From positions 1 through 58,838 of the IMG/VR virus record IMGVR_UViG_3300036779_000075: a stretch of DNA of 58,838 bases; one strand, 5' to 3'. Of the stretch, positions 3,694-42,374 are shown piece after piece. The notes beneath the pieces are model-generated. The model was given only the letters and a program-made list of their open reading frames with translations. It searched no databases and had not been told where the DNA came from. Numbering within the stretch: position 1 is the first letter of the stretch; each line of letters begins with the position of its first letter. The position numbers and the translations under genes are program-made. This DNA is from a virus. Lineage: Duplodnaviria > Caudoviricetes.

Positions 3694-4575
3694 GTGGCTG
3701 ACTCGCGGGGCTTCTTGAAGCTCACGACCGACTTCACCGAGCACCCGAAGGTCGTGGAGTCCGGGGGCGACGCCGGGTGGCTGCACGTGTGTGCGCTCGC
3801 GTACTGCTCGCGCAACCTCACCGACGGCATGATCCCGATCAGCCTCGTGCCGCGCCTATCTGACCGCGAGAACCCGAAGCAACTTGCCAGCACTTTGCTA
3901 GACGTGTGCTTGTGGCATGCGGCTGGCCACGACTGCAAAAGGTGCCCGCAGCCCGACGACCGGCACTACGTCATCCATGACTACCTGGAGCACCAGACCA
4001 GCGCCGCCAAGGCGAAGGAAATCAGCGAGAAGCGCGCTGTCGCAGGTCGCAAGGGTGCGTACGCGAAAGCTGCTGGCAATTTGCCGAGCAACTTGTCTAG
4101 CAACTTGCCAGACGCTGGCCAGGCCGTTGCCACTGGCAAATCGCTAGCAGAAGTAGAGGTAGAAGTAGAGGTACATAGGAAGAAGACTTCGTCTTCTTCT
4201 CGGCGCGCACAGCGCGGCACACGCATCCCCCCTGACTTCTCCGTCACCGCCGACATGGTCGCTTGGGCACGCACCAACGCACCCAACACCGACGGTCGCC
4301 GCGAAACCGAGAAGTTCAAGAACTACTGGACCGCCAAGTCCGGACGCGACGCCACGAAGCTCGACTGGGTCGCCACTTGGCGCAACTGGATGCTCAAGGC
4401 CGAAGACGACGCCATCGCGTCCGGCCGCATCCCCCTCCCCGCAGCGACGAGCGAGTCCACGCGCCCCGCCTGGTGCGGTTCGTGCGACGAGCGGACCCGG
4501 ATGGCTGGCCCGGCGACCGCGCCGTACCGCTGCCCCACCTGCCACCCACTCACGCAGAAAGCGAGCACGACGTGA
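3694..4575 (+). CDS. Phage replication initiator (Rep1, lambda-O-like architecture)
   Basis: WLHVCALAYCSRNLTDGMIP N-domain, HDYLEHQ, KLDWVATWRNW C-domain, terminal CxxC...CxxC; internal iterons; upstream of DnaB. Confidence 0.8.
   Translation: MADSRGFLKLTTDFTEHPKVVESGGDAGWLHVCALAYCSRNLTDGMIPISLVPRLSDRENPKQLASTLLDVCLWHAAGHDCKRCPQPDDRHYVIHDYLEHQTSAAKAKEISEKRAVAGRKGAYAKAAGNLPSNLSSNLPDAGQAVATGKSLAEVEVEVEVHRKKTSSSSRRAQRGTRIPPDFSVTADMVAWARTNAPNTDGRRETEKFKNYWTAKSGRDATKLDWVATWRNWMLKAEDDAIASGRIPLPAATSESTRPAWCGSCDERTRMAGPATAPYRCPTCHPLTQKASTT
4075..4199 (+). repeat. Putative ori1: iterons inside rep1
   Basis: 12-bp-period ggcaatttgccg/agcaacttgtct/agcaacttgcca (4075-4110; further copies 3878-3899), tandem agaagtagaggt x2 (4149-4172), palindrome gaagaagac-ttc-gtcttcttc (4179-4199). 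Confidence 0.7.
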
Positions 4576-5099
4576 CCGAGATCCCGACCCTCGCGCACGG
4601 TACCGCACCGGACTCTCAGACCCTCATCCGCCGCGTCGCCTCGATCATCCGTGAGCGCGCCACCAACGCCACCCCCGGCGACTGGGGCGACGACGCCAAC
4701 GTCACGCACGGTTTCAGCGTCAAAGCCACGCACGAGGGCGAAACCTACTTTGTCGCGTGGACCGGCGACGAGGAGAACAACGACGGCGAGCCGACCAACG
4801 CCTACGCCGACCAGTTGTTCATCGCTGCGATGCAGCCACAGGTCATGCTCGCCGTCGCGGACTGGCTTGACCGGACCGCCGAACAGCATCCCGCGTCGTG
4901 GAATGTCAGCGAGTGCCCGTCGTGCGGCACTGGCCACTGCGGCCCGCACCCGGACACGCTCGGCTGCAACGAGTGCGCCGAGGACTACCCGTGTCGTATC
5001 GCGGCTCCGGCGTTCGAGCTGGCGCGTCGGTTCTGGAACGGTGTCGCGACGTTCACCACCGAGCTGGTGCCAGCAGTGCCCGTGGACGTGACCACGTGA
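4572..5099 (+). CDS. hypothetical protein with Cys clusters
   Basis: GTGA-coupled; CPSCG...CNEC...YPC. Confidence 0.7.
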   Translation: MTEIPTLAHGTAPDSQTLIRRVASIIRERATNATPGDWGDDANVTHGFSVKATHEGETYFVAWTGDEENNDGEPTNAYADQLFIAAMQPQVMLAVADWLDRTAEQHPASWNVSECPSCGTGHCGPHPDTLGCNECAEDYPCRIAAPAFELARRFWNGVATFTTELVPAVPVDVTT

Positions 5100-5428
5100 C
5101 GCCCGGTGTCCCCGTCGCCGATCTGACGGCCGCAGAGTGGGCCGCCGCCGCGCTCAAGCAGGCCGACACCGCCGGAATGCGCGTCGCGCTCATCGAGACC
5201 AGGCACCTGCGGGCGCTGCTCGCCGAGCTTGGCCAGTACCGCCTGATCGAAACCGCCGACCGGGAAGCCGCGCAACGCGTCCGCGACGAATGGGAGGCCG
5301 GCCGCCAGCCAACCGGCCAGTGCGAGGACTGCACCTGCTGCACCGCCTCCGGGTGCCACACCGGCCCCGGATCCACGTGCCCCACTAACCAGCTCGGGGA
5401 CTCCGTGTGCCCCTGCACCGGAGATTGA
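5096..5428 (+). CDS. hypothetical protein, Cys-rich C-terminus
   Basis: CEDCTCC...C...CP...CPC. Confidence 0.7.
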   Translation: MTPGVPVADLTAAEWAAAALKQADTAGMRVALIETRHLRALLAELGQYRLIETADREAAQRVRDEWEAGRQPTGQCEDCTCCTASGCHTGPGSTCPTNQLGDSVCPCTGD

Positions 5429-5433
5429 CGGCG

Positions 5434-6783
5434 ATGACCGACCGCACCCCGCCGCAGGACCAGGGCGCCGAGATGGCCGCACTCGGCGGCATGCTCCTCA
5501 ACAGGTACGCCATCGCCGAAGTCGCCGAGATCCTCACCGGCGGCGACTTCTACAAGCCCGCACACGAACAGATCTTCACCGCCATCCTCGACCTGTACGC
5601 CGACGGCCAGGGCGCCGACGCCGTCACCGTCTCCGCCCTCCTGGCCAAACGCGGCGAACTCGCCAAAGTCGGCGGCGCGGCCTACCTGCACACCATCATG
5701 GCCTGCGTACCCACCGCCGCCAACGCCGGCTACTACGCCGTCATCGTCCGCGAACACGCACTGCGCCGCCGCCTGGTCGAAGTCGGCACCCGCATCGCCC
5801 AGATGGGCTACGACACCGAAGACGGCGCCGACATCGCCGCGATCATCGACCGCGCCCAGGCCGAGACCCACGCCCTCGACCGGCCCGGCACCGGCGACGA
5901 CGAACCATCGAACATCGACGCGTTCGACCGGATGCTCGGCGACATCGAGAACGGCGTCGAAACCGGCATCCCCACCGGATTCTCCGACCTCGACGCGCTC
6001 ACCCGCGGCCTGCACCCCGAACAGCTGATCATCCTCGCCGCGCGGCCCGCCATCGGCAAATCAACAGCCGGGCTCGACATCGCCCGGCACGTCGCCATCC
6101 GCCACCGCCTCACCACCGCCGTCTTCAGCCTGGAGATGAGCCGCGCCCAACTCCTGCGCCGCGCCACCTCCGCCGAAGCCGGAGTCGAACTGCACCACCT
6201 CGCACCCGGCGCCATGTCCCCCCGCGACTGGGAACGCGTCGCCAACGCCCGCGAACGCATCGTCAGCGCACCGCTCATCATCGACGCCTCGTCACACCTG
6301 ACCATGATGGGCATCCGCACCAAAGCCCGCCGCATGGTCCAGAAGCGCGGCCTGCGCCTCGCCATCGTCGACTACCTGCAACTGGTCAACGCAGGCGGCC
6401 GCCGCCCGGAGAACCGGCAGCAGGAAGTCGCCGAGATGTCCCGTGGCTTCAAGCTGCTCGCCAAGGAACTCCAGATCCCGATCATCGTGCTCGCGCAGCT
6501 CAACCGCGGCCCCGAACAGCGCGCCGACAAGCGACCGATGATGAGCGACCTGCGCGAATCCGGCGCCATCGAGCAGGACGCCGACGTGGTGATCCTGCTG
6601 CACCGCGAGGACGCCTACGAGCGCGAATCCCCGCGCGCCGGCGAGGCCGACTTCATCGTGGCGAAGCACCGCGACGGCCCCACCGCGACGATCACGGTCG
6701 CGTTCCAGGGCCACCTGAGCCGTTTCGTCGACATGGCCAAGCAGGACTGGACGCCGAGCAGCGCGCTGGCAGGCCGCTCATGA
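5434..6783 (+). CDS. dnaB: Replicative DNA helicase
   Basis: N-terminal PPQD..AE.A.LGG.LL, Walker A AARPAIGKS, IVDYLQL, QLNR, DLRESGAIEQDAD. Confidence 0.97.
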   Translation: MTDRTPPQDQGAEMAALGGMLLNRYAIAEVAEILTGGDFYKPAHEQIFTAILDLYADGQGADAVTVSALLAKRGELAKVGGAAYLHTIMACVPTAANAGYYAVIVREHALRRRLVEVGTRIAQMGYDTEDGADIAAIIDRAQAETHALDRPGTGDDEPSNIDAFDRMLGDIENGVETGIPTGFSDLDALTRGLHPEQLIILAARPAIGKSTAGLDIARHVAIRHRLTTAVFSLEMSRAQLLRRATSAEAGVELHHLAPGAMSPRDWERVANARERIVSAPLIIDASSHLTMMGIRTKARRMVQKRGLRLAIVDYLQLVNAGGRRPENRQQEVAEMSRGFKLLAKELQIPIIVLAQLNRGPEQRADKRPMMSDLRESGAIEQDADVVILLHREDAYERESPRAGEADFIVAKHRDGPTATITVAFQGHLSRFVDMAKQDWTPSSALAGRS

Positions 6784-6959
6784 CCACCGAGCCCGAGGCC
6801 ACGACCGCCGCGGACTTCCTCGACGCCGCCACCGCGCGACTCGACGCCCTCTGCCGCGCACCTCTGACGGACGCCGAGCGCGAGCTGTGGCGCATCGCCG
6901 CCCAGCACAACGCCGCGCTACGGGCGATCGTCGAGCGGACGGCGGCGGACCCGCGATGA
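6780..6959 (+). CDS. small hypothetical protein (59 aa, below ORF-track cutoff)
   Basis: ATGA overlap with dnaB stop; MTTEPEATTAADFLDAATARL... Confidence 0.55.
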   Translation: MTTEPEATTAADFLDAATARLDALCRAPLTDAERELWRIAAQHNAALRAIVERTAADPR

Positions 6960-6991
6960 CCACACCCGAGACCACCAGGCAGGAGCCGACC

Positions 6992-7330
6992 ATGACCACC
7001 AGCGCCGCCGAAACGCAGACAGCCGACCGGCTTCTGATCGCCTGGACCGGGGACATCGCCCGCATCAAGGCGTTCCTCGACGCCCACGGCGCGTTCTACG
7101 ACGAGCTGGCCACGCGCGGCCACGGCTCCACGTGGAAGGTCGCCATCCACCAGCTCACGCCCAAGCGCGGCGGCAACCGCGTCACCGCGAGCGTCGGCGA
7201 CGTGCTCGTCTTCCGCAGCGCCCTGATCGAAGTCGACAGGCGCGAGCCCAAGCGACGCACACCCCCCCCCGAGCCGCCAGCCAGCCTGTACGACGCGCTC
7301 GCCGAGATCGAAGGCGAGGACGTGAAGTGA
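6992..7330 (+). CDS. hypothetical protein
   Basis: AGGAG RBS before ATG 6992 (alternative start 6956). Confidence 0.65.
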   Translation: MTTSAAETQTADRLLIAWTGDIARIKAFLDAHGAFYDELATRGHGSTWKVAIHQLTPKRGGNRVTASVGDVLVFRSALIEVDRREPKRRTPPPEPPASLYDALAEIEGEDVK

Positions 7331-8886
7331 GCCTCACCTTCACCGACATCTTTTGCGGCGCCGGCGGGTCCTCGACGGGTTTGGTCGGCGCGGGCTTCGA
7401 GCTGAAACTGGCCGCCAATCACTCCCGGATCGCGATCTCCACGCACGCCGCCAACCACACCGCGGCCGACCACATCTGCGCCGACATCAACAACTACGAC
7501 ATGCGCCGCCTGCCGCGCACCGACGTGCTGTGGGCGTCCCCGATCTGTCAGGAATCTTCTCCGGCGGGCGGCCGCCGCCGCCGCGTCAAGGGCCAGCTCG
7601 CGCTCGACCTGGAGGAGTACGGCGCGGTCGAGACCGGGGCGTGGGAGCGCACCCGCGCCACCGCGTACGACGTTATCCGCGCCACCGAGATCCACCGGTA
7701 CAAGGCGGTGCTGTGCGAGAACGTCGTGGAGTTCGCCGTCGACTGGGAGCTGTTCGACTGGTGGCGCTCGGGCATGGAGTCGCTCGGCTACAACTCGCAG
7801 GTCGTCTCCGTCTCCAGCGCGCACGTCGGCGCCGGGACCAACCCGCACGCCCCGCAGTGGCGCGACCGGATCTACATCGTCTTCACCCGCAAGGGCGTCC
7901 CGCTGCCCGACATCACACCGCGCCCGCTCGCCTGGTGCGCGGCCTGCGGCGAGGACGTGCACGCGGTTCAGGCGTGGCGCAACGGCCGCAAGATCGGCAA
8001 GTACAAGCAGCAGTACGACTACCGCTGCCCCAACGCCGCCTGCCGCCACGCGGTCGTCGAACCCTACGTACGCCCCGCCGCGTCGGTCATCGACTGGTCG
8101 AACACCGGCACGCGCATCGGCGACCGCGCCCGGCCGCTCGCCGCCGCGACCATGGACCGCATCCGCGCCGGCCTGGCGATGTTCCCCGAGACCCGCACCG
8201 TGCTGACCGTCAACCACTCCGGCCACGACGGGCGCGCCTTCCCCGCCGACGCCGCGCCGCTGCCCTCGCGCACCGTGAAGATCGGCGAGGGGCTGCTCGT
8301 TCCCTCCGGAGGCACCTGGAACACGGCGCCCACCAGCACCGCCGAGCCGATGCGCACCCGCATGGCCAACCCGAAGGGCTTCGAGGCCCTGGTCGCGGCG
8401 CCGTTCGTGATCGAGTACCGCAACCACGCCACCGCGGCCCCGGTCGACGACCCGCTCGCGACCGTCACCGGGCAGGGCAACCATCACGGCCTGGTCGTGC
8501 CCGGCGCGTTCTACGTCAAGCATTACGGCGGAGGCGCCCGGCCGCAGGACATGTGCCGCACCGTCGACCACCCGTTCGGCACGATCACCACCTCCGACCA
8601 CCACTCGCTGGTGATCCCGTACCGCAACGCCGCCCCGAAGACCACCGCGCAGCCGTTGCACACCATGAGCACCGTCGACTCCGCCGCGCTCGTACAGGGC
8701 GCGGTCGAGATCGAGGACTGCTACTTCCGGATGCTCCAGCCCCGCGAGCAGCTGCTCGCGCAGCGCTTCCCCGCCGAGTACATCGTGCACGGCACCAAGG
8801 GCGAGCAGACCATGCAGGCCGGCAACGCGGTGTCCTGCAACGTCGCGCAGTGGATCGGCGAGCGTGTCGCGGCGGTACTCGGATGA
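7327..8886 (+). CDS. DNA (cytosine-5) methyltransferase
   Basis: DIFCGAGG (motif I), WASPIC (IV), ENV (VI), QWRDR (VIII), QRFP, GNAV (X). Confidence 0.93.
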   Translation: MSLTFTDIFCGAGGSSTGLVGAGFELKLAANHSRIAISTHAANHTAADHICADINNYDMRRLPRTDVLWASPICQESSPAGGRRRRVKGQLALDLEEYGAVETGAWERTRATAYDVIRATEIHRYKAVLCENVVEFAVDWELFDWWRSGMESLGYNSQVVSVSSAHVGAGTNPHAPQWRDRIYIVFTRKGVPLPDITPRPLAWCAACGEDVHAVQAWRNGRKIGKYKQQYDYRCPNAACRHAVVEPYVRPAASVIDWSNTGTRIGDRARPLAAATMDRIRAGLAMFPETRTVLTVNHSGHDGRAFPADAAPLPSRTVKIGEGLLVPSGGTWNTAPTSTAEPMRTRMANPKGFEALVAAPFVIEYRNHATAAPVDDPLATVTGQGNHHGLVVPGAFYVKHYGGGARPQDMCRTVDHPFGTITTSDHHSLVIPYRNAAPKTTAQPLHTMSTVDSAALVQGAVEIEDCYFRMLQPREQLLAQRFPAEYIVHGTKGEQTMQAGNAVSCNVAQWIGERVAAVLG

Positions 8887-9311
8887 CCGCCCGCACCGCG
8901 CGTAGGCCCACGCCACCCGAGACGACCGCGCCGGCCGGAGTCCTCATCGACCTCACGCTCGACGTCGCCCCCATCCCCAAGGGGCGCCCCCGCGTGAACA
9001 CCCGCACCGGGCAGGCGTACACCCCGGCCGCGACCCGCGCCTACGAGCAGCGCATCGGCTGGCTGCTGCGTCAGGCCCGCGTGCCGTGCGCCCGGAGCGG
9101 CGAGTTGGGCGTGACTGCGGTCTTCCACCTGGCCGACGGGCAGCGCGCCGACGTGGACAACCTCGCCAAGGCGCTGCTGGACGGCGCCAATGGGATCGCG
9201 TACCGGGATGACGCGCAGGTCACGCAACTCGCCGCCCGGATCGTGCGCGGTGACGGGCTGCCGCGAATCCGCCTGACCGTGTACCGCCTAACTCCTGGAG
9301 AGACCGAATGA
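8883..9311 (+). CDS. rusA: RusA-like Holliday junction resolvase
   Basis: PIPKGRPR...YTP...DVDNLAKALLDGANGIAYRDDAQV. Confidence 0.92.
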   Translation: MTARTARRPTPPETTAPAGVLIDLTLDVAPIPKGRPRVNTRTGQAYTPAATRAYEQRIGWLLRQARVPCARSGELGVTAVFHLADGQRADVDNLAKALLDGANGIAYRDDAQVTQLAARIVRGDGLPRIRLTVYRLTPGETE

Positions 9312-10514: not shown

Positions 10515-10517
10515 CCG

Positions 10518-10994: not shown

Positions 10995-11010
10995 TGCGTG
11001 CAATCAAAGC

Positions 11011-11502: not shown

Positions 11503-11568
11503 GCTGGACCAGCGGACGAGCTTCCGCGGCGAGCTGGCCGGGGGCGCCGACACGAGCGGGACGGGGGC

Positions 11569-13692: not shown

Positions 13693-13693
13693 C

Positions 13694-14038: not shown

Positions 14039-14040
14039 TC

Positions 14041-15272: not shown

Positions 15273-15295
15273 GGCTGAAACACAGGAGTTGAAAC

Positions 15296-15808: not shown

Positions 15809-16068
15809 CCACGGCCGGGCCGACGTGGGCTGACCTTGTGCGCGAGTTCGAACGCATCCCGCGCCGCCTGTCGCAGCCGCGCCCCGTCTTCCCGCAGGAC
15901 TGGGACCTCAGCCTAGCCAGGCGGCCGTCGGTGCTGTCCACTGAGTACCCGTTCACGATCCGCTACGCGGCCAGCGTGTGGGAACAGTTGCACCCGATCG
16001 GCGAGCTCTTGCGGCCCCACCGCATCCACTACCTGCCGAACCCGCGCAGCAACGTACGCAAGCGATGA
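15805..16068 (+). CDS. hypothetical protein
   Basis: GTGA/ATGA coupling between terS and terL. Confidence 0.5.
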   Translation: MTTAGPTWADLVREFERIPRRLSQPRPVFPQDWDLSLARRPSVLSTEYPFTIRYAASVWEQLHPIGELLRPHRIHYLPNPRSNVRKR

Positions 16069-17393
16069 GCGTCGCCGACACGGTCGTCCGCTTCGAGCCG
16101 CGCGGCGCCGTCCTCGACGCGTTCCGCTCCAAAGACGGCGAGCTACTGATCAGCGGCGCGGCCGGCACGGGCAAGTCCGTCGGCGCCCTGATGAAAGTCC
16201 ACCTCGCGATGCTCAGCACCCCCGGAGCCCGCGCCCTGCTCGCCCGTAAAACCCACGCCAGCCTCACCGCATCGACCCTGGTCACCTTCCGCCAGAACGT
16301 CGCCGCCGAAGCCCTCACCGCAGGCATCGTCAAGTACTACGGCGGCTCAGGAGCCGAAGCCGCCGCCTACCGGTACCGCAACGGCAGCACCATCGTCGTC
16401 GGCGGCCTGGACCGGCCCAGCCGCCTGCTCTCGACCGAGTACGACCTCGCGATGGTCGACGAAGCCACCGAAACCGACCCGGAAGACATCGACACGATCA
16501 TCACCCGGCTGCGGCACGGGCGACTGTCGTATCAGCAGCTGCTGATGTGCACGAACCCGGCCGGCCCCACGCACCACCTCAAGGCGCGCGCCGACGCTGG
16601 CCGCGCCCGGATGCTCTACAGCCGCCACGAGGACAACCCGCGCATGTTCCAGGACGGCGCGTGGACTCTGTACGGGCAGACCTACCTGGCGCGCCTGGAG
16701 ACGCTAACCGGGGTGCGTTACCAGCGGATGCGCTGGGGGAAGTGGGTCGCGGCCGAGGGTCTGGTGTATCCGGATTGGGATCCGGCGGTGCACCTGGTGG
16801 ACCGGATGCCTCCGGGCTCCGAGAACTGGCAGCGGTGGTGGGGCATCGACTTCGGGTTCTCCAACCCTTTCGTGCTGCTGTGCTTCGCCGAAGACCCGGA
16901 CGGCAGACTGTGGCTGTATCGGCAGATTTACATGAGCCACAGGCTAGTGGAAGACCATGCCAAGCAGATCAAGGCCATCGTCTGCCCCGACGGCGTGTGG
17001 CGTGAGCCGCGCCCGCGTGGCATCGTCGCCGACCACGACGCGGAAGACCGGGCCACCTTCGAACGCCACTTCGGGATGTCCACCACGCCCGCGCGCAAGT
17101 CCGTCTCGGATGGCGTCCAGGCGATGCAGGCCAGGTTGCGTGTCCAGCCCGATGGCAAGACGCGCTTCTACGTGGTGCGCGGCAGTCTCGTCGAGCGTGA
17201 CCCGGAGCTGGTGGAGGCGAAGAAACCGACCTGCTTCGAGGACGAGATCGCGGAGTACGTGTGGCCGCACGACGTGAAGCCGGACAAGCGGGAGAACCCG
17301 GTCAAGGAGAATGATCACGCTATGGACACGGGCCGGTACGTGACTGCGGAGCGGGATCTGGGTGGCCGCCCGAGGGTGCGCGTCCTCGGCTAG
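16065..17393 (+). CDS. Terminase large subunit
   Basis: Walker A GAAGTGKS, Walker B MVDEATE, CTNP, GIDFGFSNP, NDHAMD. Confidence 0.95.
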   Translation: MSVADTVVRFEPRGAVLDAFRSKDGELLISGAAGTGKSVGALMKVHLAMLSTPGARALLARKTHASLTASTLVTFRQNVAAEALTAGIVKYYGGSGAEAAAYRYRNGSTIVVGGLDRPSRLLSTEYDLAMVDEATETDPEDIDTIITRLRHGRLSYQQLLMCTNPAGPTHHLKARADAGRARMLYSRHEDNPRMFQDGAWTLYGQTYLARLETLTGVRYQRMRWGKWVAAEGLVYPDWDPAVHLVDRMPPGSENWQRWWGIDFGFSNPFVLLCFAEDPDGRLWLYRQIYMSHRLVEDHAKQIKAIVCPDGVWREPRPRGIVADHDAEDRATFERHFGMSTTPARKSVSDGVQAMQARLRVQPDGKTRFYVVRGSLVERDPELVEAKKPTCFEDEIAEYVWPHDVKPDKRENPVKENDHAMDTGRYVTAERDLGGRPRVRVLG

Positions 17394-19127: not shown

Positions 19128-19142
19128 TCTATGCCGCCGTCG

Positions 19143-19226
19143 CGGAAGGTGCGGGACTCGAACCCGCAACGGTGTCACCCGTGACGCTTTAGCAAAGCGC
19201 TTGGCACGCCAGATGCCAGACCTTCC
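19143..19226 (-). tRNA. tRNA-Ser(GCT)
   Basis: Acceptor GGAAGGT/ACCTTCC, G73, anticodon arm GCGCT-TTGCTAA-AGCGT, long variable arm, T arm GCGGG-TTCGAGT-CCCGC; no encoded CCA. Confidence 0.85.
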
Positions 19227-19229
19227 CTG

Positions 19230-19313
19230 CGGAGGATGCGAGAGTCGAACTCGCCGCCGTGTTACCGGCCACGCTTTTCGGGAGCGTTTGGCATGCCACG
19301 TGCCGAATCCTCC
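19230..19313 (-). tRNA. tRNA-Ser(CGA), atypical C33
   Basis: Acceptor GGAGGAT/ATCCTCC, G73, anticodon arm ACGCT-CCCGAAA-AGCGT, long variable arm, T arm GCGAG-TTCGACT-CTCGC; no CCA. Confidence 0.8.
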
Positions 19314-19330: not shown

Positions 19331-19426
19331 GCGGCCCAGCGCCATCTGCTTCCGCAAATACTGAGGCATTGATACTGTTCGGATAGCGGACAGTGAGTCA
19401 TCCTCAGCGAACGGCGGGAGGCGGCA

Positions 19427-19711
19427 ATGGCATCCACCACCGCAACCGCCCCCACGACGCGCACACCCACCGGTCGGCGGCGGCTGGCAGGCGTGCGCAC
19501 CGCCCTGGCGTCAAGGGTCCGCCAGGGCGTAGCGATGGCCAGCGCGGCGCGGAACCGCCTACGGATCCCCGCGCTGACCATCGCCGGACTCGGCTGCTTC
19601 GCCGCCGCCTGGTTCCAGCTGGGACTGTTCGCCGGACTGCTCGCCACGAGCGTGAGCGTGTTCGTATACCAGTGGCTCACAGCGCCCGAACCAGACAGCA
19701 GCAAGCGCTGA
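19427..19711 (+). CDS. small membrane protein preceding portal
   Basis: Two hydrophobic segments; TGATG coupling to portal. Confidence 0.7.
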   Translation: MASTTATAPTTRTPTGRRRLAGVRTALASRVRQGVAMASAARNRLRIPALTIAGLGCFAAAWFQLGLFAGLLATSVSVFVYQWLTAPEPDSSKR

Positions 19712-21108
19712 TGGCGCGCACCCTCATCGGCGCGATCGCCCAAGCCCTCACCACCAAAGCCGCCGACCCCCCGGTCCCATACGCCCGCACCGGGTACACC
19801 ACCGCCTACCTCCAGCAGGGCACCAGCGACCCCACCGCGTACATGCGCGCCTACGGCGGCAACGGCACCGTCTTCTCGATCGTCTCCATGCTCGCCAGGC
19901 AGACCGCGAAAGTGCCCTGGCACCTCTACCGCGCCGCGCCGCAAGACGGACGCCGCCGCTACACCACCGGCGACAAAGGCTCGGATCAGCGCGTCGAAGT
20001 GTTGCAGCACCACGCCATGAACCTGTGGACCAAACCCAACCAGTGGACCACCGGCTACCAGTTCCGGGAGTTGGGCCAGACCTACCTCGACCTCACCGGC
20101 GAGGACTACATCGTCATCGGCCGCGACCCCCGCGCCACGCTGCCCATGTCGCTGTGGCAGGTGCGCCCCGACCGGATGGAACCCGTCCCGCACCGTGAGA
20201 AGTACCTGGCCGGCTACGTGTACACGGGTCCGTCCGGCGAGCAGGTGCCGCTGCAATGCGACGAGGTCATCCAGCTCAAGTACCCGAACCCGTTCGACCC
20301 CTACCACGGTTTGGGGCCGATCCAGTCGATCCTCGTGGACGTTGACGCGGCGAAGTACTCGGCGCAGTGGAACCGGAACTTCTTCCTCAACTCCGCGGTG
20401 CCCGGCGGTGTGATCCAGATCGACAAGCGGCTCGACGACGACGAGTGGAACGAGTTCACCAACCGCTGGCGCGAGAGCCACCGCGGCGTCGGAGCCGCAC
20501 ACCGCGTCGCCGTGCTCGAACAAGGCGCGACCTGGGTCCCTAACGCGCACTCCGCCAGGGAGATGGACTTCGCGAACCTGCGCAACATCTCCCGCGACGT
20601 CATCCGCGAAGCGTTCGCCATGCACAAGGCGATGCTCGGCACCGTCGAAGACGTCAACCGCGCCAACGCCGAAACCGCGCAGGAACTCTTCGAAGCGTTC
20701 CTGATCACCGACCGGCTCGACCGGTGGCGCGACGTCCTCAACTGCTTCTACCTGCCCCTGTTCGGCAGCACCGGCGACGGCGTGGAGCTCGATCACGACG
20801 ACGCCGTCACCGGCAACCGTGAAGCCGACGCCCTCGAACTCAAGAGCAAGGCCGAGGCCGCGCAGCGGCTCATCGACTCCGGCCTCGACCCACACGACGT
20901 GCTCGAAGCCGTCGGCCTACCCGACATGGGCGTCGTCGAGCAAGCCACCCAGGCGCCTGCGCTCCCCCCGGCATGGGTGCCCGCCGCGCCACCCGAGGCC
21001 GCCCCGGCCGCGCCCGACGTCGACGCGCTGCTCGCGAAGTACATGCCCGAACTGCGTGAACTGCTCGAATCCCGTGCCGCCTGGAACACCCTCGCGGGCG
21101 CCCGATGA
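19711..21108 (+). CDS. Portal protein, HK97 family
   Basis: KPN, LDLTGEDY, V.PDRM, NPFDPYHGLGPI, FFLNSAVPGGVI, DVNRANAE. Confidence 0.93.
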   Translation: MARTLIGAIAQALTTKAADPPVPYARTGYTTAYLQQGTSDPTAYMRAYGGNGTVFSIVSMLARQTAKVPWHLYRAAPQDGRRRYTTGDKGSDQRVEVLQHHAMNLWTKPNQWTTGYQFRELGQTYLDLTGEDYIVIGRDPRATLPMSLWQVRPDRMEPVPHREKYLAGYVYTGPSGEQVPLQCDEVIQLKYPNPFDPYHGLGPIQSILVDVDAAKYSAQWNRNFFLNSAVPGGVIQIDKRLDDDEWNEFTNRWRESHRGVGAAHRVAVLEQGATWVPNAHSAREMDFANLRNISRDVIREAFAMHKAMLGTVEDVNRANAETAQELFEAFLITDRLDRWRDVLNCFYLPLFGSTGDGVELDHDDAVTGNREADALELKSKAEAAQRLIDSGLDPHDVLEAVGLPDMGVVEQATQAPALPPAWVPAAPPEAAPAAPDVDALLAKYMPELRELLESRAAWNTLAGAR

Positions 21109-33057: not shown

Positions 33058-33058
33058 G

Positions 33059-34747: not shown

Positions 34748-34756
34748 GCGGCGGGC

Positions 34757-37558: not shown

Positions 37559-37565
37559 GGCCCTT

Positions 37566-38012
37566 GTGACGTCGAAGCCTGCCGCTGGTTCCCGCATCAA
37601 GGCGGCGAACGCGCCCGCGCCGTACCTGCTGTCGGCGGCGTGCTCCGCCCCGGTGACGGTGACGGGTACCGCGATGACGGACATCCCCGGCTGCTCGATC
37701 ACGTTCAGCACGGTGAACGCGAACGCCAGCGTGCTGGTGACCGGCGTGTTCGACGCGCAGGCGGTGACGATGTCGGGTGCCGCGGTGGCGACGGGGAACT
37801 GCGCCGTGGACGGGACGCTGCAGCCGGGCCAGGCCACGCACGATGAGATCGCGGTCGGCGACCGGGGCACCGTGTCGCAGGTGTGGAACGTGACGCTCGC
37901 CGCGGCGGGCAGTCACCTGATCAAGCTTCAGGGCGCGTTGTCGGGGGCGTCCGGGTCGACGCAGTTCAACGCGACGCACACGACGCTGACGCTGCTGGTC
38001 CTGGACTGGTGA
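37566..38012 (+). CDS. minor tail protein
   Basis: TDIPGCSITF; small beta protein at end of tail cluster. Confidence 0.65.
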   Translation: MTSKPAAGSRIKAANAPAPYLLSAACSAPVTVTGTAMTDIPGCSITFSTVNANASVLVTGVFDAQAVTMSGAAVATGNCAVDGTLQPGQATHDEIAVGDRGTVSQVWNVTLAAAGSHLIKLQGALSGASGSTQFNATHTTLTLLVLDW

Positions 38013-38073
38013 CGCGGCGTGGAGGGGTGCGGCATCATGTGCAGCAGGTTCTATTATCGGATGGAGATGTCCG

Positions 38074-38535
38074 GTGAGCGGTACGGCCGCGCACGAGCAG
38101 CGCGAGACGCTGCACATCCTCACCAGGGTTCCGGCGCACGAGCGGCGCGAGGACGACCCGCACTACCACCTGTTCGAGCAGGCCAAGGCGCGCCTGAAGC
38201 GGCAGGGGCTGTGGAAGTGCGTGATCGCCGACGACCTGTGCGAGGGCGAACCCGAACTGCACCACACGTACATCGAGTTCTCCCAGATCAACGAGGTCGA
38301 TCCGGAGAAGGTCGCCAGGGCGCTGGGGCTGCACTTCGCCAGCGACGAGGACTTCCAGGTGTGGGCGGAGTCTCCGGGGAACCTCGAGGTTCTGTGCCGT
38401 ACGCACCACATCTCGCACCTGGGGATCCACGTGCTGCCGGGGCCTTTGTGGGATGCGGTGCGCTTCCGCCGGGACGGGACCGAGGCGCCGGCCGAGTTCA
38501 TTCCGGCGAAGGACGTGCCGGGGGGCGCCCGGTGA
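38074..38535 (+). CDS. HNH-like metal-binding hypothetical protein
   Basis: C....C...ELHH...NLEVLCRTHH...GIH. Confidence 0.65.
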   Translation: MSGTAAHEQRETLHILTRVPAHERREDDPHYHLFEQAKARLKRQGLWKCVIADDLCEGEPELHHTYIEFSQINEVDPEKVARALGLHFASDEDFQVWAESPGNLEVLCRTHHISHLGIHVLPGPLWDAVRFRRDGTEAPAEFIPAKDVPGGAR

Positions 38536-38837
38536 ACTGGCTCATTCACGTCATGGGCCTGGACAATCCGGTCGGCCGATGGGAACTGTTCTGGTCGGGC
38601 ATCGCGAGCGACCTGACCCAGTTCTCGATTCCGGTCGCCGTGGTGGCCTTCTGGTACCACCACACATGCCACGTCAACCACCCCCGCTTCTGCTGGCGCC
38701 CCGGCACGCACCCCGTCGCCGGCACCTCGTACCGCGCGTGCAAGAAGCACCACCCCGCCGTGCCCGACCGGATCTCCGCCGATCACATCGCGCACGCGCA
38801 CCGCCAGGTCACGGACTCGACGGGGGGCGCGTCGTGA
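38532..38837 (+). CDS. small membrane protein with Cys/His C-terminus
   Basis: FWSGIASDL, one TM, CHV...CWR...CKKHHP. Confidence 0.65.
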   Translation: MNWLIHVMGLDNPVGRWELFWSGIASDLTQFSIPVAVVAFWYHHTCHVNHPRFCWRPGTHPVAGTSYRACKKHHPAVPDRISADHIAHAHRQVTDSTGGAS

Positions 38838-39781
38838 CGGTCACCGGCTGTGATATCGCCTGGCAGAAGCCGACCGGGGCGCAGCTGGCCGCGGCGGGAA
38901 TCCACTTCGCGAGCCTGTACGTCGGGCAGGACACCACGGGCAAGAACATGACCCCGGCCGTGGTCGCGGACTACGCGGCGCACGGCGTGGCGGTGATCGC
39001 GAACTTCGAGTACGGCGCCCAGCAGATGCTCGGCGGCGCGCCACAGGGCGCGGTCGACGCGGCGCTCGGGCTTCAGCAGGCCCGCGCGTGCGGGATGCCG
39101 GCGGGGCGCCCGATCATTTACAGCGCGGACTGGGCGGCCACGGCGGCGCAGATCACGGGCGCGGTCATCCCGTACCTGGTGGCGGCGCGCGGCGTGACGG
39201 GGCCGGGCACGGTGGGTGTGTACGGCTCGTACGCGGTGGTTACGGCGGTGTCCGCGTACTGGGCGGCGCATTTTCCCGGTGAGCGGGTGTTCCTGTGGCA
39301 GACGGTCGCCTGGTCGAATTCGCGCTGGGCGCAGCTCGGCGAGGTGCAGCAGACGGGCGGCACGATCACGGTCGGCGGTATCGCGCTCGACCTGGACTAT
39401 GCACCGGCCGGTGATGTCGGCCAATGGATCCCTGGAGAAGACATGCCGTTGACCACGCAAGATGTGAAGGCTGTCGCCGACGAGGTGCTCGGCCGGCTGA
39501 TCCCCCGCGCTGGTGGCCAGTCCGGCCCGACGAGCCTGGGCGGGATGGTCGCCTGGAATGACGCGCACGTGCAGAACCTCGCCAACCAGGTCAGCGGAGT
39601 GAAGGACGCGATCGCCGCGTCGGGGGCGCCGGTCGACGTGAAGGCGCTGGCCGTGTCGCTGGCCGCCGCCGTGCAGCCCGCGATCGTCGCAGCCGTGCAG
39701 GCGGGGATCGCGCCGGAGGCCGACCAGCTCGCGGTGACGTTCGAGCAGCACCTCGCGTCCACGTTCGCGCAGGCCAAGTAG
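38834..39781 (+). CDS. Endolysin, DUF1906/Rv2525c-like glycoside hydrolase
   Basis: GCD.A, GKNMT, NFE, PIIYSAD, GVYGS, WQTVAWS, DLD. Confidence 0.85.
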   Translation: MTVTGCDIAWQKPTGAQLAAAGIHFASLYVGQDTTGKNMTPAVVADYAAHGVAVIANFEYGAQQMLGGAPQGAVDAALGLQQARACGMPAGRPIIYSADWAATAAQITGAVIPYLVAARGVTGPGTVGVYGSYAVVTAVSAYWAAHFPGERVFLWQTVAWSNSRWAQLGEVQQTGGTITVGGIALDLDYAPAGDVGQWIPGEDMPLTTQDVKAVADEVLGRLIPRAGGQSGPTSLGGMVAWNDAHVQNLANQVSGVKDAIAASGAPVDVKALAVSLAAAVQPAIVAAVQAGIAPEADQLAVTFEQHLASTFAQAK

Positions 39782-40227
39782 TGTCGCGAATCGACGGGCT
39801 GCTGCACGTGCTGCGGCAGCAGCCGTACGAGGCGGCGCTCGCGCTCGCGCTGGCGGTCAGCGCCGTGGCGAGCCTGAGCACGGGCGCTCCGCCCGGTGCC
39901 GCGGCGCGGGTGCTGCCGGTGTGGGCGCTGCGGCCCGCCGCGGCACTGCTCGCGCTGTCGGGCGCGCTGACGGTGGGCGGCCTGTTCGGCGCCGGGTACG
40001 TGCTCTCGGACGTGCGGCGCGTGCTCGCGCGCAGGGTCGAGCAGTCGGGGCAGACGCTGATGGGCGGCGTGCTGCTCGCGGTCGCGCTGGGCGCGTTCTC
40101 GGCGGGCCGCGTGGGGATCGTCCCGGGCACGATCTACGCGGCGCTGGCCGCGGCCAGTTCGGGGCGGGCGGCGCTGATCGGGCACACCTTCCGTGCGGCC
40201 GGCCGTGAGCGGACGGACCTGATATGA
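39781..40227 (+). CDS. 4-TM membrane protein (holin-like)
   Basis: Hydrophobic helices; coupled to the endolysin. Confidence 0.6.
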   Translation: MSRIDGLLHVLRQQPYEAALALALAVSAVASLSTGAPPGAAARVLPVWALRPAAALLALSGALTVGGLFGAGYVLSDVRRVLARRVEQSGQTLMGGVLLAVALGAFSAGRVGIVPGTIYAALAAASSGRAALIGHTFRAAGRERTDLI

Positions 40228-40658
40228 GGGCTGACACGGTTGCCGCCGTGGCCGCTGTCGCGGTGTCGGTGCTCACCGCGCTGGGCACCCTGTACCGGGG
40301 TGTGCGCCGCCGGGAGCGCGATCAGGGGGCGGCGCCGTTCCTCGCGGGCAAGGCCGCGATCGAGGAAGCGGAGACGGCGCTGGCGTGGAAGGATCGGCGC
40401 ATCCGTGACCTGGCCGCGAGCGAGGCGACGCTCAAGACGGACCTCGCCGCCGCGGTCGCGACTTCCGCGGCGCAGCAGGAGCAGCTGACGCGGCTTCAGG
40501 CCCGGCTGTACCAGGTGGAGTCGGAGAACCGGGAGCTGCTGGCGCACAAGGAGGAGTCGGAGCAGCGCGACCGTGCCTCTCGGGAGCGGATCTCGGCGCT
40601 GGAGTCGACGGTGGACGATCTGAAGCGGAAGCTGTCGCTCGGCGGCCCGACGTTCTGA
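40224..40658 (+). CDS. N-terminal TM + coiled-coil lysis-cassette protein
   Basis: One TM then heptad repeats. Confidence 0.7.
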   Translation: MRADTVAAVAAVAVSVLTALGTLYRGVRRRERDQGAAPFLAGKAAIEEAETALAWKDRRIRDLAASEATLKTDLAAAVATSAAQQEQLTRLQARLYQVESENRELLAHKEESEQRDRASRERISALESTVDDLKRKLSLGGPTF

Positions 40659-40712
40659 AACACCGGACTTGATCTAGCTGTGCCGGTATCCTGGAATCCC
40701 CCGTGTGACACG

Positions 40713-40746
40713 AGAAGCCCCCGCCCTCCCCCCGGCGGGGGCTTCT
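40713..40746. terminator. Bidirectional terminator hairpin
   Basis: agaagcccccgcc/ggcgggggcttct between convergent genes. Confidence 0.75.
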
Positions 40747-40806
40747 CCGCGTGCCCGTGGTGCTCGCCGCTCCTGGTGCCGGCGTGCGGCCGTAAGACCG
40801 CCGGAT

Positions 40807-41484
40807 CTATCTGCCCGACTGGACGAGCGTCACGTCGGCGTGTGCGGTCTTCAGATCTGCTGCGACTTTCGCGGCGGCGGCGTCCAGGTCGGATTGCGTC
40901 GCGGCCGAGATCTGGTAGCCGACCGCTGCCTGGATCCATGCGTTGATGTCGGACTGCACGGTGGCCGTGTCGTCGCGCCACCGGCCCATCGCCGCGGGTT
41001 CGTCGGCGGGGTTGAATCCGGCGTCGGCCTGGGTGAACGCGTCCTGGTATGTGGTGACGTCCTGTTCGATGCGGGTGGAGGTGCGCCAGGCGGAGAATTT
41101 GGACGCGGCCGAGTTCGGGTCGTCGAGCGCGGCCAGGCCGGCGTTGGCGTCCGCGTACCGGGTGGTGCCGACGATTGCTCGTCCGGTGGCGAATTCCGAG
41201 GCGTAGTGGTCGATGGCGTTGTTCAGCACTGCGGCGGCCTTCGTGCGCGCGGAGGCTGGTGCGAGGGGGTTGGCCGCGGTACTGCTGTTCGTCGCGGTGG
41301 GGGCGGCTGTGTGTGGCGCGGCGGTGGCGTTCGTGTTGCCGGAGTGTAGTGCGGCTCCGAGTGCCGCGATCAGTGCGAAGACGGCGAGGATGGTTCCGGC
41401 GGCGATGAGGGCGATCTTGTTGGTTCGGCGGCGCTTGGCGTTCGGCTGCTGCGGCGCGGTGGTTCCTTGTTCGCGTTCTTGCAT
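40807..41484 (-). CDS. Membrane-anchored secreted helical protein
   Basis: Basic stretch + TM (IALIAAGTILAVFALIAALGAAL), Ala/Thr linker, helical ectodomain. Confidence 0.75.
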   Translation of the reverse strand: MQEREQGTTAPQQPNAKRRRTNKIALIAAGTILAVFALIAALGAALHSGNTNATAAPHTAAPTATNSSTAANPLAPASARTKAAAVLNNAIDHYASEFATGRAIVGTTRYADANAGLAALDDPNSAASKFSAWRTSTRIEQDVTTYQDAFTQADAGFNPADEPAAMGRWRDDTATVQSDINAWIQAAVGYQISAATQSDLDAAAAKVAADLKTAHADVTLVQSGR

Positions 41485-41582
41485 GGTGCCCCCCAGGCTG
41501 CTTGGTCTGCGGGGGCACGGTAGCGCTACGGGGGGTGGCCGCGCGTGGTTTCGGGGTGAATGGGGGCGTGCGCCCGGCGCGC

Positions 41583-42374
41583 TCACGCCGCGAGCGGGTG
41601 GCAGGCGGGGCAGCGGTACGGCGGTCCGTTGTCTTCGACCATCCTGGTGCGTTCGTTGCATGCTCCGCAGTGCGGTGGGCGTTTCGGCTGGGTGCTAGTC
41701 CCGGCTGGTGTGGCGGACTCAGCGCGCCAATCGGCGACATGGCCAGGCAGGTCCCCCTCGGCGGCGACCTTGCGCCACCAAGCGCTGCTTCGGGGCTTGC
41801 GGGTGATCTTTATCCAGTCGATGAATCTCTTCTCATCTTCCTCGCCAAGGTCGATCCCGGCGGTGCGCAGGATGCGCTGAGGCGGAAGAAGATGAGGATC
41901 TTCTTCATGAGGGAACTGAGGAGATGGGCCGGACCGCGGTCCGGCCAAAGGCGGACTAGCGTCCGGCCATAGGTCGCTTATGCCCGGACTGTCGTCCGGC
42001 CTTGGACTGGTCTTTGGCCGGACTGTCGTCCGAGCATTGGCGCTATGGCCGGACTGTGGTCCGGGTACGGATTCGGCGAACCGCGGCAGCCGGTAGGTCG
42101 TTTGGACCCCCTTCATGGCGTAGATCGTCCGGCCCGTCTTGTCCTTGCCGACCGGCACGCGCACCTCAAGACCGCGCTTCGCCAGCCGCTGGAGGACGCG
42201 CCCGACGCCGTCTGCGGTCATCCGCATCCAAGAGCACAGCTCATCCATGCCGGGGAAGCACTCGCGCGTCTCTTCGTCGGCGTCGTCGGCCAGGATCAGC
42301 AGCAGTGCCAGTTCCCCGGCGTCGAGGTCGGCGGGGGCGTGGTCCTTGACCTCGCGGTACAGCTGGAATCCCAT
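41583..42374 (-). CDS. Second replication initiator (Rep2; wHTH N-domain, internal iterons, C-terminal Zn motif)
   Basis: ELALLLILADDA.EETRECFPG...L..LAKRGL; C-terminal CGACNERTRM...YRCPACHP. Confidence 0.75.
   Translation of the reverse strand: MGFQLYREVKDHAPADLDAGELALLLILADDADEETRECFPGMDELCSWMRMTADGVGRVLQRLAKRGLEVRVPVGKDKTGRTIYAMKGVQTTYRLPRFAESVPGPQSGHSANARTTVRPKTSPRPDDSPGISDLWPDASPPLAGPRSGPSPQFPHEEDPHLLPPQRILRTAGIDLGEEDEKRFIDWIKITRKPRSSAWWRKVAAEGDLPGHVADWRAESATPAGTSTQPKRPPHCGACNERTRMVEDNGPPYRCPACHPLAA
41885..42064. repeat. Putative ori2: five palindromic iterons CCGGAC-N4-GTCCGG
   Basis: Copies at 41929, 41951, 41984, 42018, 42049; adjacent gaagaagat-gagg-atcttcttc palindrome (41885-41906). 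Confidence 0.8.

Follow-up and report, generated by a model that had tools for sequence, protein, structure and literature searches.

The window, by which we mean the whole stretch of 58,838 bp analysed, is a circularly assembled replicon (~59 kb) from a soil metagenome. It comprises a complete tailed actinophage of temperate type and, within this, a block of ~9-10 kb that follows the plan of an actinomycete integrative and conjugative element (AICE). Each of these two parts carries a replication initiator of its own, Rep1 in the phage early operon and Rep2 in the block, with an origin lying inside the initiator gene. The explanation that we consider probable, given the anatomy, the module distribution and the mosaic structure observed here, is that of a phage-AICE mosaic in which the zinc ribbon and the palindrome common to both initiators are portable modules that have been shuffled. 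What is new is a variant of iteron-type initiators, found in a phage-AICE mosaic.

The genome has ~70% GC and its phage part encodes terminase, portal, ClpP, capsid, tape measure, lysin, DnaB and integrase together with Xis-like and cro-like genes. The phage's own tyrosine integrase, the second in the window, lies at 51284-53182 on the minus strand (PHROG 1, integrase, 2.2e-42), adjoined by the Xis-like gene (53387-53590) and close to the cro-like HTH gene (54214-54486). The only tRNA genes in the window are two for tRNA-Ser (19142-19313). The final 115 nt of the window are repeated at 13-127, within a tandem repeat of 120-nt period. Logan contigs of run X1 span 39000-48533 and 48504-53000 with 0 differences and an even depth of ~21-29, and bridge both junctions of the AICE-like block; since X1 and the record probably go back to one sample, these bridging contigs are not independent.

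Rep1 (3694-4575, plus strand; 293 aa from the GTG at 3694) is located upstream of the phage DnaB-type replicative helicase (5407-6783, plus strand; Pfam DnaB_C 6.3e-96, DnaB 1.4e-30). The longest ORF begins at 3658, and the start that agrees with homologues is the one at 3694 (VADSRGF...). Rep1 matches PHROG replication-initiation families at 3e-21 to 2.6e-18, 2447 and 3926 with its N-terminal part and 3992 and 1408 with its C-terminal part, and no Pfam family, HTH_36 included, matched the protein in the Pfam scan. The AF2 model of Rep1 contains a confidently folded N-terminal domain (20-140), a disordered stretch (147-180), a helical C-terminal domain (187-255) and a small strand pair (270-300). 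Foldseek searches with the N-terminal domain gave weak matches only, to MarR and ORC winged helices (best E 0.085).

The iterons of origin 1 (4073-4172) are CTRGCAANTTGCC-like units followed by two copies of the 12-mer AGAAGTAGAGGT (4149-4172), with two more units at 3876-3901; the in-gene repeats amount to four to five units and two 12-mers. The units at 3876-3901 and 4073-4147 account for 10 of the 15 CTRGCAANTTGCC-like matches in the window, where a mean of 4.2 is expected and where none of 100 shuffles reached 15. This region encodes the linker of Rep1 predicted to be disordered by AF2. Directly after the iterons, in the 50-nt stretch of the gene with the lowest GC, is the palindrome GAAGAAGAC-TTC-GTCTTCTTC, that is GAAGAAGACTTCGTCTTCTTC (4179-4199), which codes RKKTSSSS. 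The 50-nt GC falls to 0.42 at 4150-4199 in Rep1 and to 0.48 at 41800-41849 in Rep2, against 0.54-0.74 in the other bins of both rep genes.

Rep2 (41583-42374, minus strand; 263 aa, product P0002), for which we found 41 homologues and for which 42374 is the start that agrees with homologues, matches Pfam HTH_36 (PF13730; 28.5 bits, cut-off 25) and PHROG replication-initiation families 270, 6643 and 345, the last of these annotated as 'replication initiation O-like'. Its AF2 model has the same architecture as that of Rep1, with a winged-helix-like N-terminal domain (1-100), a disordered stretch (103-157) and helices (164-221). The iterons of origin 2 (41927-42065) are five CGGAC-N4-GTCCGGCC(A/T)A(A/T)G units, which, with their CGGAC-N4-GTCCGG parts at 41929-42064, make up 10 of the 12 strand-wise matches to CGGAC-N4-GTCCGG in the window; as the total for the window is by itself no more than chance could give (12 against a mean of 7.1, reached by 10 of 100 shuffles), the signal lies in the clustering of the units. 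The palindrome GAAGAAGAT-(4 nt)-ATCTTCTTC, that is GAAGAAGATGAGGATCTTCTTC (41885-41906), has a second partner for one of its arms at 41832-41843. An earlier note on this DNA had claimed that each gene holds its own iteron array with a palindrome downstream of it, and that the iterons differ. We confirmed both points, as neither iteron type was found at the other origin, and the pattern GAAGAAGA-N-TCTTCTTC has just these 2 matches in the 58,838 bp and none in 100 shuffles.

We propose that the N-terminal winged-helix-type domain of each Rep would read the iterons of its own gene, these and the low-GC palindrome being encoded in the linker predicted to be disordered, with the helical C-terminal domain and the four-cysteine zinc ribbon coming next. 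The palindrome may act as an unwinding or loading site, and the C-terminal module would then pass the open origin to a DnaB-type helicase, either that of the host or, where present, that of the phage. Rep1 would fire the early or lytic origin of the phage beside the phage DnaB, and Rep2, under the control of its divergent GntR regulator, could drive replication of the element in a plasmid or transfer mode, resembling AICE replication ahead of TraB-mediated transfer. The settings of the two genes fit this division of roles, which had been suggested earlier, Rep1 being found with DnaB and Rep2 in the AICE-like block; nevertheless, 'plasmid or transfer origin' is a reading from context only, because a Rep2-type gene lies directly before DnaB in an integrated element of Frankia.

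The sole stretch common to Rep1 and Rep2 by BLASTP is the C-terminal CxxC...CxxCHP motif (Rep1 261-298 and Rep2 252-290; 23 of 39 residues identical, E 2e-11), in agreement with the claims that the two proteins share this motif and have unrelated N-terminal domains. Both peptides that had been quoted are present, but in Rep1 the HPL given as the end of the protein is followed by seven residues, TQKASTT. Profile comparison widens the common C-terminal region to ~80 columns (Rep1 213-302 and Rep2 177-263, probability 96.7%). The motif, encoded at 4465-4551 on the plus strand in Rep1 (RPAWCGSCDERTRMAGPATAPYRCPTCHPL) and at 41592-41681 on the minus strand in Rep2 (RPPHCGACNERTRMVEDNGPPYRCPACHPL), has the consensus RPxWCGxCDExTR...RCPxCHPL and corresponds to no Pfam or NCBIfam model. 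A search with it, as had been advised, returned 678 protein clusters (E<=1e-3). Among the best 150 of the 678, the motif lies at most 20 aa from the C-terminus in 97, and Pfam HTH_36 is present in 27; 48 of 74 long C-terminal carriers match replication-initiator PHROGs, from at least five groups. The zinc motif is a portable module, widely reused among initiators of actinobacterial phages and mobile elements.

The earlier note had gone further, suggesting that one element may have two switchable origins which feed a single helicase, and that the zinc motif of the Reps serves specifically for docking to the phage DnaB. We consider this unlikely, even though DnaB stands close behind Rep1, the same motif ends both Reps, and zinc-motif Reps have a full-length DnaB gene shortly after them in G001, G002/G003, G004 and one Frankia locus. 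In general the motif is not partnered by a phage-encoded DnaB: among 25 viral loci with the motif, duplicates removed, only 3 have a same-strand DnaB within ~2.6 kb on the downstream side (a count for which the 48 larger of 68 called ORFs were scanned). Moreover, Rep1 N-domain homologues that lack the motif are also located upstream of a DnaB-like gene (L009-L013, 5 of 27 Rep1-related loci), and the motif occurs in zf-CCHC proteins of 110-120 aa which are not initiators. When residues 183-305 of Rep1 were folded together with the phage DnaB, the prediction weakly supported a complex, scoring 0.46 against 0.00 for the best of three controls. In the calibration of the tool, 58 of the 80 complexes with solved structures reached the mark, as did 2 of the 110 pairs that were mismatched; at 0.60 or below, only 7 of the 80 solved complexes passed, together with both passing mismatches. 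Between runs at least 79% of contacts are the same, with a partner pLDDT of at least 74; as the prediction for Rep1 183-305 gives no contacts, binding cannot be assigned to the motif as opposed to the helical domain. No helicase-loader gene was recognised in the window.

Doubtful too, in our opinion, is a role of the zinc ribbon purely in nucleic acid binding, for instance to DNA that is single-stranded or forms a hairpin once the origin is open, with no docking of proteins. A four-cysteine ribbon with conserved Arg and Thr between the cysteine pairs would suit this role, and so would the tandem copies of the motif that certain proteins contain (P0165 and P0166 have 4 stretches each), its joining to zf-CCHC knuckles in small proteins and the fact that motif carriers mostly have no helicase gene nearby. 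It is harder to reconcile with our searches by structure and by sequence, which found no relative of the motif with a known DNA-binding role, and with the lack of any single DNA element accompanying the motif. The palindrome is present in only 2 of 28 zinc-motif loci, both of the L007 lineage, and the two features are therefore not mechanistically tied.

The distribution of the palindrome is consistent with the mosaic of shuffled modules that we favour. The exact 21-mer of Rep1 occurs in 11 IMG/VR contigs and 9 times within rep-like ORFs (8 distinct, since L075 and L079 are near-identical), which BLAST groups into at least 3 clusters by their N-parts and at least 3 by their C-parts. A homologue of Rep1 in L007 (53% identical) has other repeats and the identical 21-mer, and a homologue of Rep2 in L005 (56% identical) has other iterons and an identical block of 45 nt that includes the palindrome. 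These sequence comparisons indicate that the palindrome is likewise a portable module shuffled among initiators, and that the specificity parts and the core parts of Reps vary separately. The portable nature of the zinc ribbon and of the palindrome would thus explain why Rep1 and Rep2 have them in common, and the idea that the two features form a private link between Rep1 and Rep2 fails, both being widespread.

In rep-like ORFs the 21-mer always lies exactly where the exchanged N- and C-halves meet, and 9 of 9 read it in the frame KKTSSSS, as would be expected if it were a conserved module-boundary linker, kept for recombination or for its peptide, and no origin element. We regard this as improbable. 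In Rep2 the arms are unchanged but are read in a different frame (HEEDPHLLP), so that it is the DNA, and not the peptide, which the two palindromes have in common. Furthermore, the codons of the palindrome (GAA, GAT, CTT, TCT, ACT) end in A/T in genes with 76-81% G+C at third positions, and the palindrome forms the lowest-GC 50-nt stretch, directly after the iterons and within the linker predicted to be disordered.

The second half of the mosaic, the AICE-like block, has all its genes open and with coding-type GC3. Divergent from Rep2 is a GntR/UTRA regulator (42497-43249, plus strand; 250 aa; Pfam GntR 3.3e-17, UTRA 4.4e-20), and divergent from Rep1 is a 99-aa ORF (3257-3556) with no domain recognisable by Pfam or PHROG; the divergent arrangement described in the earlier note is thus present at both genes, but the regulator of Rep2 is not small. 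There follow, all on the plus strand, a Xis-like HTH_17 protein (43341-43622; Pfam HTH_17 3.6e-08; PHROG 66, excisionase), a DUF2637 membrane protein (45426-46517; Pfam 1.9e-17), which is a candidate Spd (spread) protein because of its position before the TraB-like gene, a TraB-like FtsK/SpoIIIE DNA translocase (46865-49060; PF01580, 5.4e-07, 29.7 bits, cut-off 24), whose coding frame was set by GC3 plot, and a tyrosine integrase (49763-50794; Phage_integrase, PF00589, 1.2e-09). Among plasmids of actinomycetes, 40 records match the TraB-like protein, one of them a 13.5-kb Streptomyces plasmid with an int/xis/FtsK/spdB/GntR layout, and among 50,697 phage records none does; the comparable plasmid NZ_CP108827.1 carries a GntR gene. 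No ParA or ParB family was found in Pfam scans of the called ORFs. No att-type direct repeat of at least 13 nt flanks the block (the longest word common to its borders is 12 nt), nor is there a tRNA fragment or T-arm-like fragment at these borders, and for this reason we do not present the block as a separately excisable AICE.

The combination recurs in two records that are related to the window and diverged from it. In G001, a Rep2 homologue and a GntR gene adjoin the lysis genes, and GntR, HTH_17 and TraB-like genes also form a string, one small ORF of which is 73% identical; in G002 a GntR gene and an FtsK-domain gene accompany a Rep with the zinc motif, and in both records the Rep and GntR genes are paired divergently. 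Such recurrence, together with the open genes, the even depth and the bridged junctions, makes it very improbable that the block is cargo without function, a remnant in decay or a product of chimeric assembly, with no role for Rep2 and origin 2, despite the missing att repeats, the absence of close Rep2 or TraB-like relatives among GenBank phages and scans which found no further copies.

A bolder extension of the mosaic model, to which we give rather little credence, is that of a lineage of temperate actinophages permanently carrying an AICE-type block for conjugation, replication and integration, with two origins that have different iteron readers and a common 'handshake', a near-invariant GAAGAAGA hairpin and a portable zinc ribbon, engaging a DnaB-type helicase. 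If this were true, the elements might be spread in virions as well as through TraB-mediated transfer of double-strand DNA, and the 'handshake' would be used by many unrelated actinobacterial initiators.

Initiators of the phage lambda O type are iteron-dependent theta initiators with the origin inside the gene. Rep1 and Rep2 resemble them in having an N-terminal DNA-binding domain, in-gene iterons in a flexible linker and then a low-GC stretch, and in a C-terminal part that would be expected to recruit the helicase system; in contrast to lambda O, both Reps have a C4 zinc ribbon at their end, and a perfect palindrome with 9-bp arms comes after the iterons. The likeness is one of architecture, with no membership of the lambda O family shown by sequence. 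Residues 15-269 of Rep1 are ~31% identical to gp71 of mycobacteriophage Marvin and relatives (E 1e-20 to 5e-22), a cluster annotated as 'replication initiation protein / RepA-like replication initiator', and the alignment stops before the zinc motif. Compared with the HTH_36 (PF13730) and DnaD_N-like winged-helix initiators, Rep2 passes the cut-off and Rep1 has no match.

AICEs such as pSAM2, SLP1 and pMEA300 are described, in the available part of PMC2440964, as having modules for integration/excision, replication, FtsK-like transfer and regulation, all of which the block holds within ~9-10 kb, in the form of a tyrosine integrase with an excisionase, a single FtsK/SpoIIIE transfer protein and a GntR regulator. 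It differs in lying within a phage genome, without detectable att repeats or tRNA target, and in its initiator, as Rep2 is of the HTH_36/zinc-ribbon type and is none of the replication types named in that part of the source, RepSA, RepAM and Prim-Pol (PMC2440964). Phage-plasmids, which move between cells as phages, offer a further parallel, in that functions of phages and of plasmids are united in one replicon, which has several replication modules (PMC12282955, available part); what the replicon studied here has in addition, compared with the phage-plasmids described there, is a pair of integrases and a conjugation gene of the TraB type.

The window most likely holds two lambda-O-like initiator/origin units. 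One is built on Rep1, the initiator of the phage early operon, encoded on the plus strand (ORF 3658–4575, with a GTG at 3694 as the start that fits its homologues), and the other on Rep2, encoded on the minus strand (ORF 41583–42461, the recorded product being a 263-aa form that starts at 42374) in a block resembling an actinomycete integrative and conjugative element (AICE). The only significant stretch between the two proteins by BLASTP was the C-terminal zinc motif (23/39 identical residues, E 2e-11), in agreement with the earlier note, which had described one such motif at the end of two Reps with unrelated N-domains. Comparison of the two family profiles also aligned C-terminal regions only (Rep1 213–302 with Rep2 177–263; probability 96.7%, E 4e-10), with most of the signal coming from the zinc motif.

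AF2 models of the two proteins have the same order of parts. In Rep1 (36-row alignment, mean pLDDT 79) a confident N-domain (residues 20–140) is followed by a disordered stretch (147–180), exactly that encoded by the iterons and palindrome, then by a helical bundle (187–255, pLDDT ~97) and a short strand pair (270–300). In Rep2 (12-row alignment, mean pLDDT 67) a fold at residues 1–100 precedes disorder at 103–157 and helices at 164–221. Foldseek returned 0 PDB matches to the Rep1 model at E ≤ 0.001. Mycobacteriophage proteins annotated as replication initiators are ~31% identical to Rep1 residues 15–269, and Rep2 scores above the Pfam HTH_36 cut-off.

The window has two copies of the palindrome GAAGAAGA-N(1–10)-TCTTCTTC, at 4179–4199 and 41885–41906, whereas 100 shuffles gave none. 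Both are perfect, with 9-bp arms, and the reading frame differs between them, giving RKKTSSSS in Rep1 and HEEDPHLLP in Rep2. Just upstream of each, in the sense of its own gene, lies a private repeat array. The Rep1 array consists of CTRGCAANTTGCC-like units at 3876–3901 and 4073–4147, which account for 10 of the 15 matches in the window (a total of 15 was reached in 0/100 shuffles), followed by two copies of a 12-mer at 4149–4172. The Rep2 array consists of five CGGAC-N4-GTCCGG units at 41929–42064, unusual for their clustering and not for their window-wide count by itself. Neither repeat type is present at the other origin. The common palindrome, preceded in each gene by its own iterons, stands as the earlier note had claimed. 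GC content falls to 0.42 at 4150–4199, while the other 50-nt bins of both genes lie at 0.54–0.74, excluding a Rep2 bin of 0.48 at 41800–41849. The claim that each Rep is divergent from a small regulator held in part: divergent ORFs are present at both genes, but the one at Rep2 encodes a GntR/UTRA protein of full size, and the one at Rep1, of 99 aa, shows no recognisable domain.

We infer that the N-domain of each initiator would bind its own iterons, that the low-GC palindrome beside them would be the site that opens or extrudes, and that the C-terminal helical domain and zinc ribbon would hand the opened origin over to a DnaB-type helicase. Of these steps the link to the helicase is the weakest, and the proposal that the zinc motif docks the phage DnaB survived only in weakened form. 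DnaB follows zinc-motif Reps in five lineages, and Rep1 183–305 folded with the phage DnaB scored 0.46, against 0.00 for the best of three controls, a weak support. In calibration the mark was reached by 58/80 solved complexes and 2/110 mismatched pairs, with only 7/80 solved complexes, plus both passing mismatches, at or below 0.60. Runs showed at least 79% contact agreement and partner pLDDT of at least 74; no interface was reported. Against the proposal, DnaB lies downstream in only 3/25 non-duplicate motif loci, and DnaB-like genes also follow Rep1 homologues that lack the motif. A helicase docked by the ribbon would in most carriers have to be that of the host; that the ribbon is instead a nucleic-acid-binding module is equally open.

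The profile search of the zinc motif beyond the window, suggested in the earlier note, found many carriers. A five-sequence profile searched against 1.84 billion cluster representatives matched 678 at E ≤ 1e-3, 33 of them at E ≤ 1e-10. In the best 150 of the 678, the motif is at most 20 residues from the C-terminus in 97, HTH_36 is present in 27 and Phage_rep_org_N in 1. Of the 74 that are at least 190 aa long with a C-terminal motif, 49 had a PHROG match at E ≤ 1e-8, and 48 of those matched at least one replication-initiator family, in at least five groups (2149/1408, 2447/3926, 270/391/1032, 3171/8064 and 1456/37920/4707). A word-index search with the motif region of Rep1 (256–305) returned only two proteins. 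As a short and a long form of the motif are both found in the Rep1 family and in the Rep2 family, the motif has been exchanged between families. Six IMG/VR loci (L048, L050, L052, L054, L059 and L060) encode proteins of 110–120 aa that join a zf-CCHC knuckle to the zinc motif, so the motif also occurs outside initiators. No Pfam or NCBIfam model covers the motif (the NCBIfam search gave only sub-threshold noise), nor does any solved structure: the motif profile matched PDB sequences mostly over ~10–13 residues of C2H2-finger proteins, with a few longer matches at E ≥ 0.048, and the Rep1 profile gave one sub-threshold row (E 0.26), all judged unrelated. Found at the C-terminus of initiators from at least five unrelated N-domain families, this well-defined ribbon (RPxWCGxCDExTR...RCPxCHPL) is a candidate for an interface, common to mobile-element initiators, with the actinobacterial replisome.

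The DNA encoding the motif is 91% identical between Rep1 and Rep2 over 35 nt; recent gene conversion between the two stretches was set aside, the similarity being attributed to identical residues and GC-rich codon choice. Seven residues (TQKASTT) extend beyond the zinc motif in Rep1. This tail and its stop codon (window 4552–4600; loci L006, L007 and L037) are conserved across Reps with different N-domains and overlap the GTG at which the next gene begins (..ACGACGTGACCGAG..), which points to coupled translation or to a module boundary that is conserved. Between Rep1 and DnaB, the ORF at 4566–5099 has a Cys-rich stretch and matches Ead/Ea22-like proteins weakly, at 24.9 bits against a cut-off of 27.

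The palindrome also behaves as a portable module. The exact Rep1 21-mer was found in 11 IMG/VR contigs, inside a rep-like ORF in nine of them, eight of which are distinct (L075 and L079 hold the same ORF). Contig L072 has 51% GC and no spanning ORF of at least 150 codons; L080 has 56% GC and the remaining nine 66–72%. Within rep-like ORFs the 21-mer is read KKTSSSS in every case, the repeats ahead of it are each time private to the gene and different, and BLAST clustering divides both the parts before and the parts after the palindrome into at least three clusters each. The Rep2 form recurs in locus L005 as an identical 45-nt block, though the proteins are 56% identical and the iterons differ. 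Because only 2/28 zinc-motif viral loci have the palindrome, and several palindrome-bearing genes lack the motif, the two are mutually independent. Among 120 Rep1 homologues KKTSSS occurs in 13 and a W[RDE]N[WR] motif in 43, but both in only four, which rules out a strict coupling of the palindrome to a single type of C-domain. The 21-nt palindrome, conserved without a single change where rep halves have been swapped, is a concrete candidate for the core unwinding or loading site of high-GC phage origins, a poorly defined class. The zinc-motif rep genes of L039, L049 and L051 have another recurrent hairpin, GACGCGT-loop-ACGCGTC, at the equivalent position, ~100–250 nt before the motif.

The remainder of the window, from 51.3 to 58.8 kb and from 1 to 40.7 kb, is a complete temperate tailed phage. 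It encodes an integrase, an Xis-like gene, a cro-like HTH gene, a PD-(D/E)XK exonuclease, an HNH endonuclease, a DUF4326 gene, Rep1, DnaB, a C5 methylase, terminase (15978–17393), portal (19393–21108), a ClpP-type protease, capsid, tape measure and a lysin followed by two small ORFs, possibly holins. Two adjacent tRNA-Ser genes (anticodons gct and cga; 19142–19313, minus strand) lie between terminase and portal. The record is classed as linear in IMG/VR, with a CheckV completeness of 100%. Its last 115 nt repeat positions 13–127, within a tandem repeat of 120-nt period, and the assembly therefore closes on itself as a circle broken in the repeat; an Ala/Asp-rich tandem-repeat ORF runs across the record ends (58041–58838 and 1–~430). 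The first 25 kb had no megablast match among phages.

The lysis genes are separated from the phage integrase by a block with the AICE module set. Its order is Rep2 (minus strand), GntR (plus strand), an HTH_17 Xis-like gene, several small ORFs, a DUF2637 protein, a 731-aa FtsK/SpoIIIE protein (frame set from the GC3 plot), one more ORF and a tyrosine integrase. The FtsK-like (TraB-like) protein had no tblastn match in 50,697 GenBank phage records and no further copy in viral contigs, and matched 40 actinomycete plasmid records, including a Streptomyces plasmid of 13.5 kb on which the gene order is int, xis, Prim-Pol, FtsK, spdB, GntR. Contigs of another assembler from sequencing run X1 span both block borders at even depth, a check that is not independent, since the window may itself come from X1, a soil metagenome. 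Comparison of 40400–42600 with 50600–51500 found no direct repeat longer than 12 nt and no att-type repeats at the borders, which also lack a tRNA or T-arm fragment; on this evidence we dropped both a fresh site-specific insertion of the block and a tandem array excised together. The two tyrosine integrase genes (49763–53182) converge on a 490-bp spacer in which GCGAGTAGATTGCGAG is repeated (51068 and 51327) and a hairpin lies at ~51226–51262, all candidate arm sites or attP; no att core was identified in this spacer.

Rep2 had no tblastn match among 50,697 GenBank phages or 72,556 plasmids, nor in a single-protein search of genome contigs, whereas alignment A3, used for Rep2-type genes, found two loci in genome contigs; metagenome contigs gave no match. 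Two Logan contigs (63,121 and 60,625 bp), matched by their length, each appear to encode a Rep1-like and a Rep2-like protein. One Rep2-type gene, in Frankia sp. EI5c (L067, NZ_LRTK01000035.1), is 42% identical, has the long motif form and lies beside an integrase with DnaB directly downstream, so that Rep2-type initiators are not limited to conjugative blocks. This integrated element adjoins recR/ybaB/dnaX, and its initiator gene has five GGCGGACAACCATCCGCC iterons and a 15-nt inverted repeat of the GAGAGAGA type.

Two related viral records also combine phage genes with such a block, which is therefore no one-off. In G001, a 63-kb record of 76% completeness, a homologue 56% identical to Rep2 is divergent from a GntR and adjoins holin, GH25 lysin and tail genes. 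G001 also has a further phage Rep type with the zinc motif, upstream of DnaB, and a second GntR/HTH_17 pair, after which come small ORFs (one with 73% identity to window 43622–43900) and a 720-aa FtsK-domain (TraB-like) protein. A third rep-like gene lacks the motif, and its linker reads QASVNQASVHQSSVSQASL. In all, this one record (loci L005, L006, L082 and L086) holds three rep-like genes, two GntR+HTH_17 pairs and a TraB-like gene. In G002 (100% complete at 116 kb, with terminal repeats) a Rep1 homologue is accompanied by DnaB, and a further zinc-motif Rep is divergent from a GntR that shares 65% identity with that of the window; an FtsK-domain gene is also present.

For the AICE pSAM2, conjugal transfer has been shown to need autonomous replication (PMC2440964). 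From this precedent and the gene context, Rep1 would serve the lytic origin, and Rep2 an origin for replication in the plasmid state or during transfer. A limited literature search, which does not establish absence from print, returned no description of the zinc ribbon as a family, of an invariant palindrome at a module junction, of a complete tailed phage with an AICE-type TraB block within it, or of such a phage-block combination recurring. Iteron origins inside genes, AICEs and mosaic phage genomes have each been described before; a complete tailed phage with an AICE-like TraB block, recurring in two diverged records, points to elements that straddle the divide between phages and conjugative elements in Actinobacteria.
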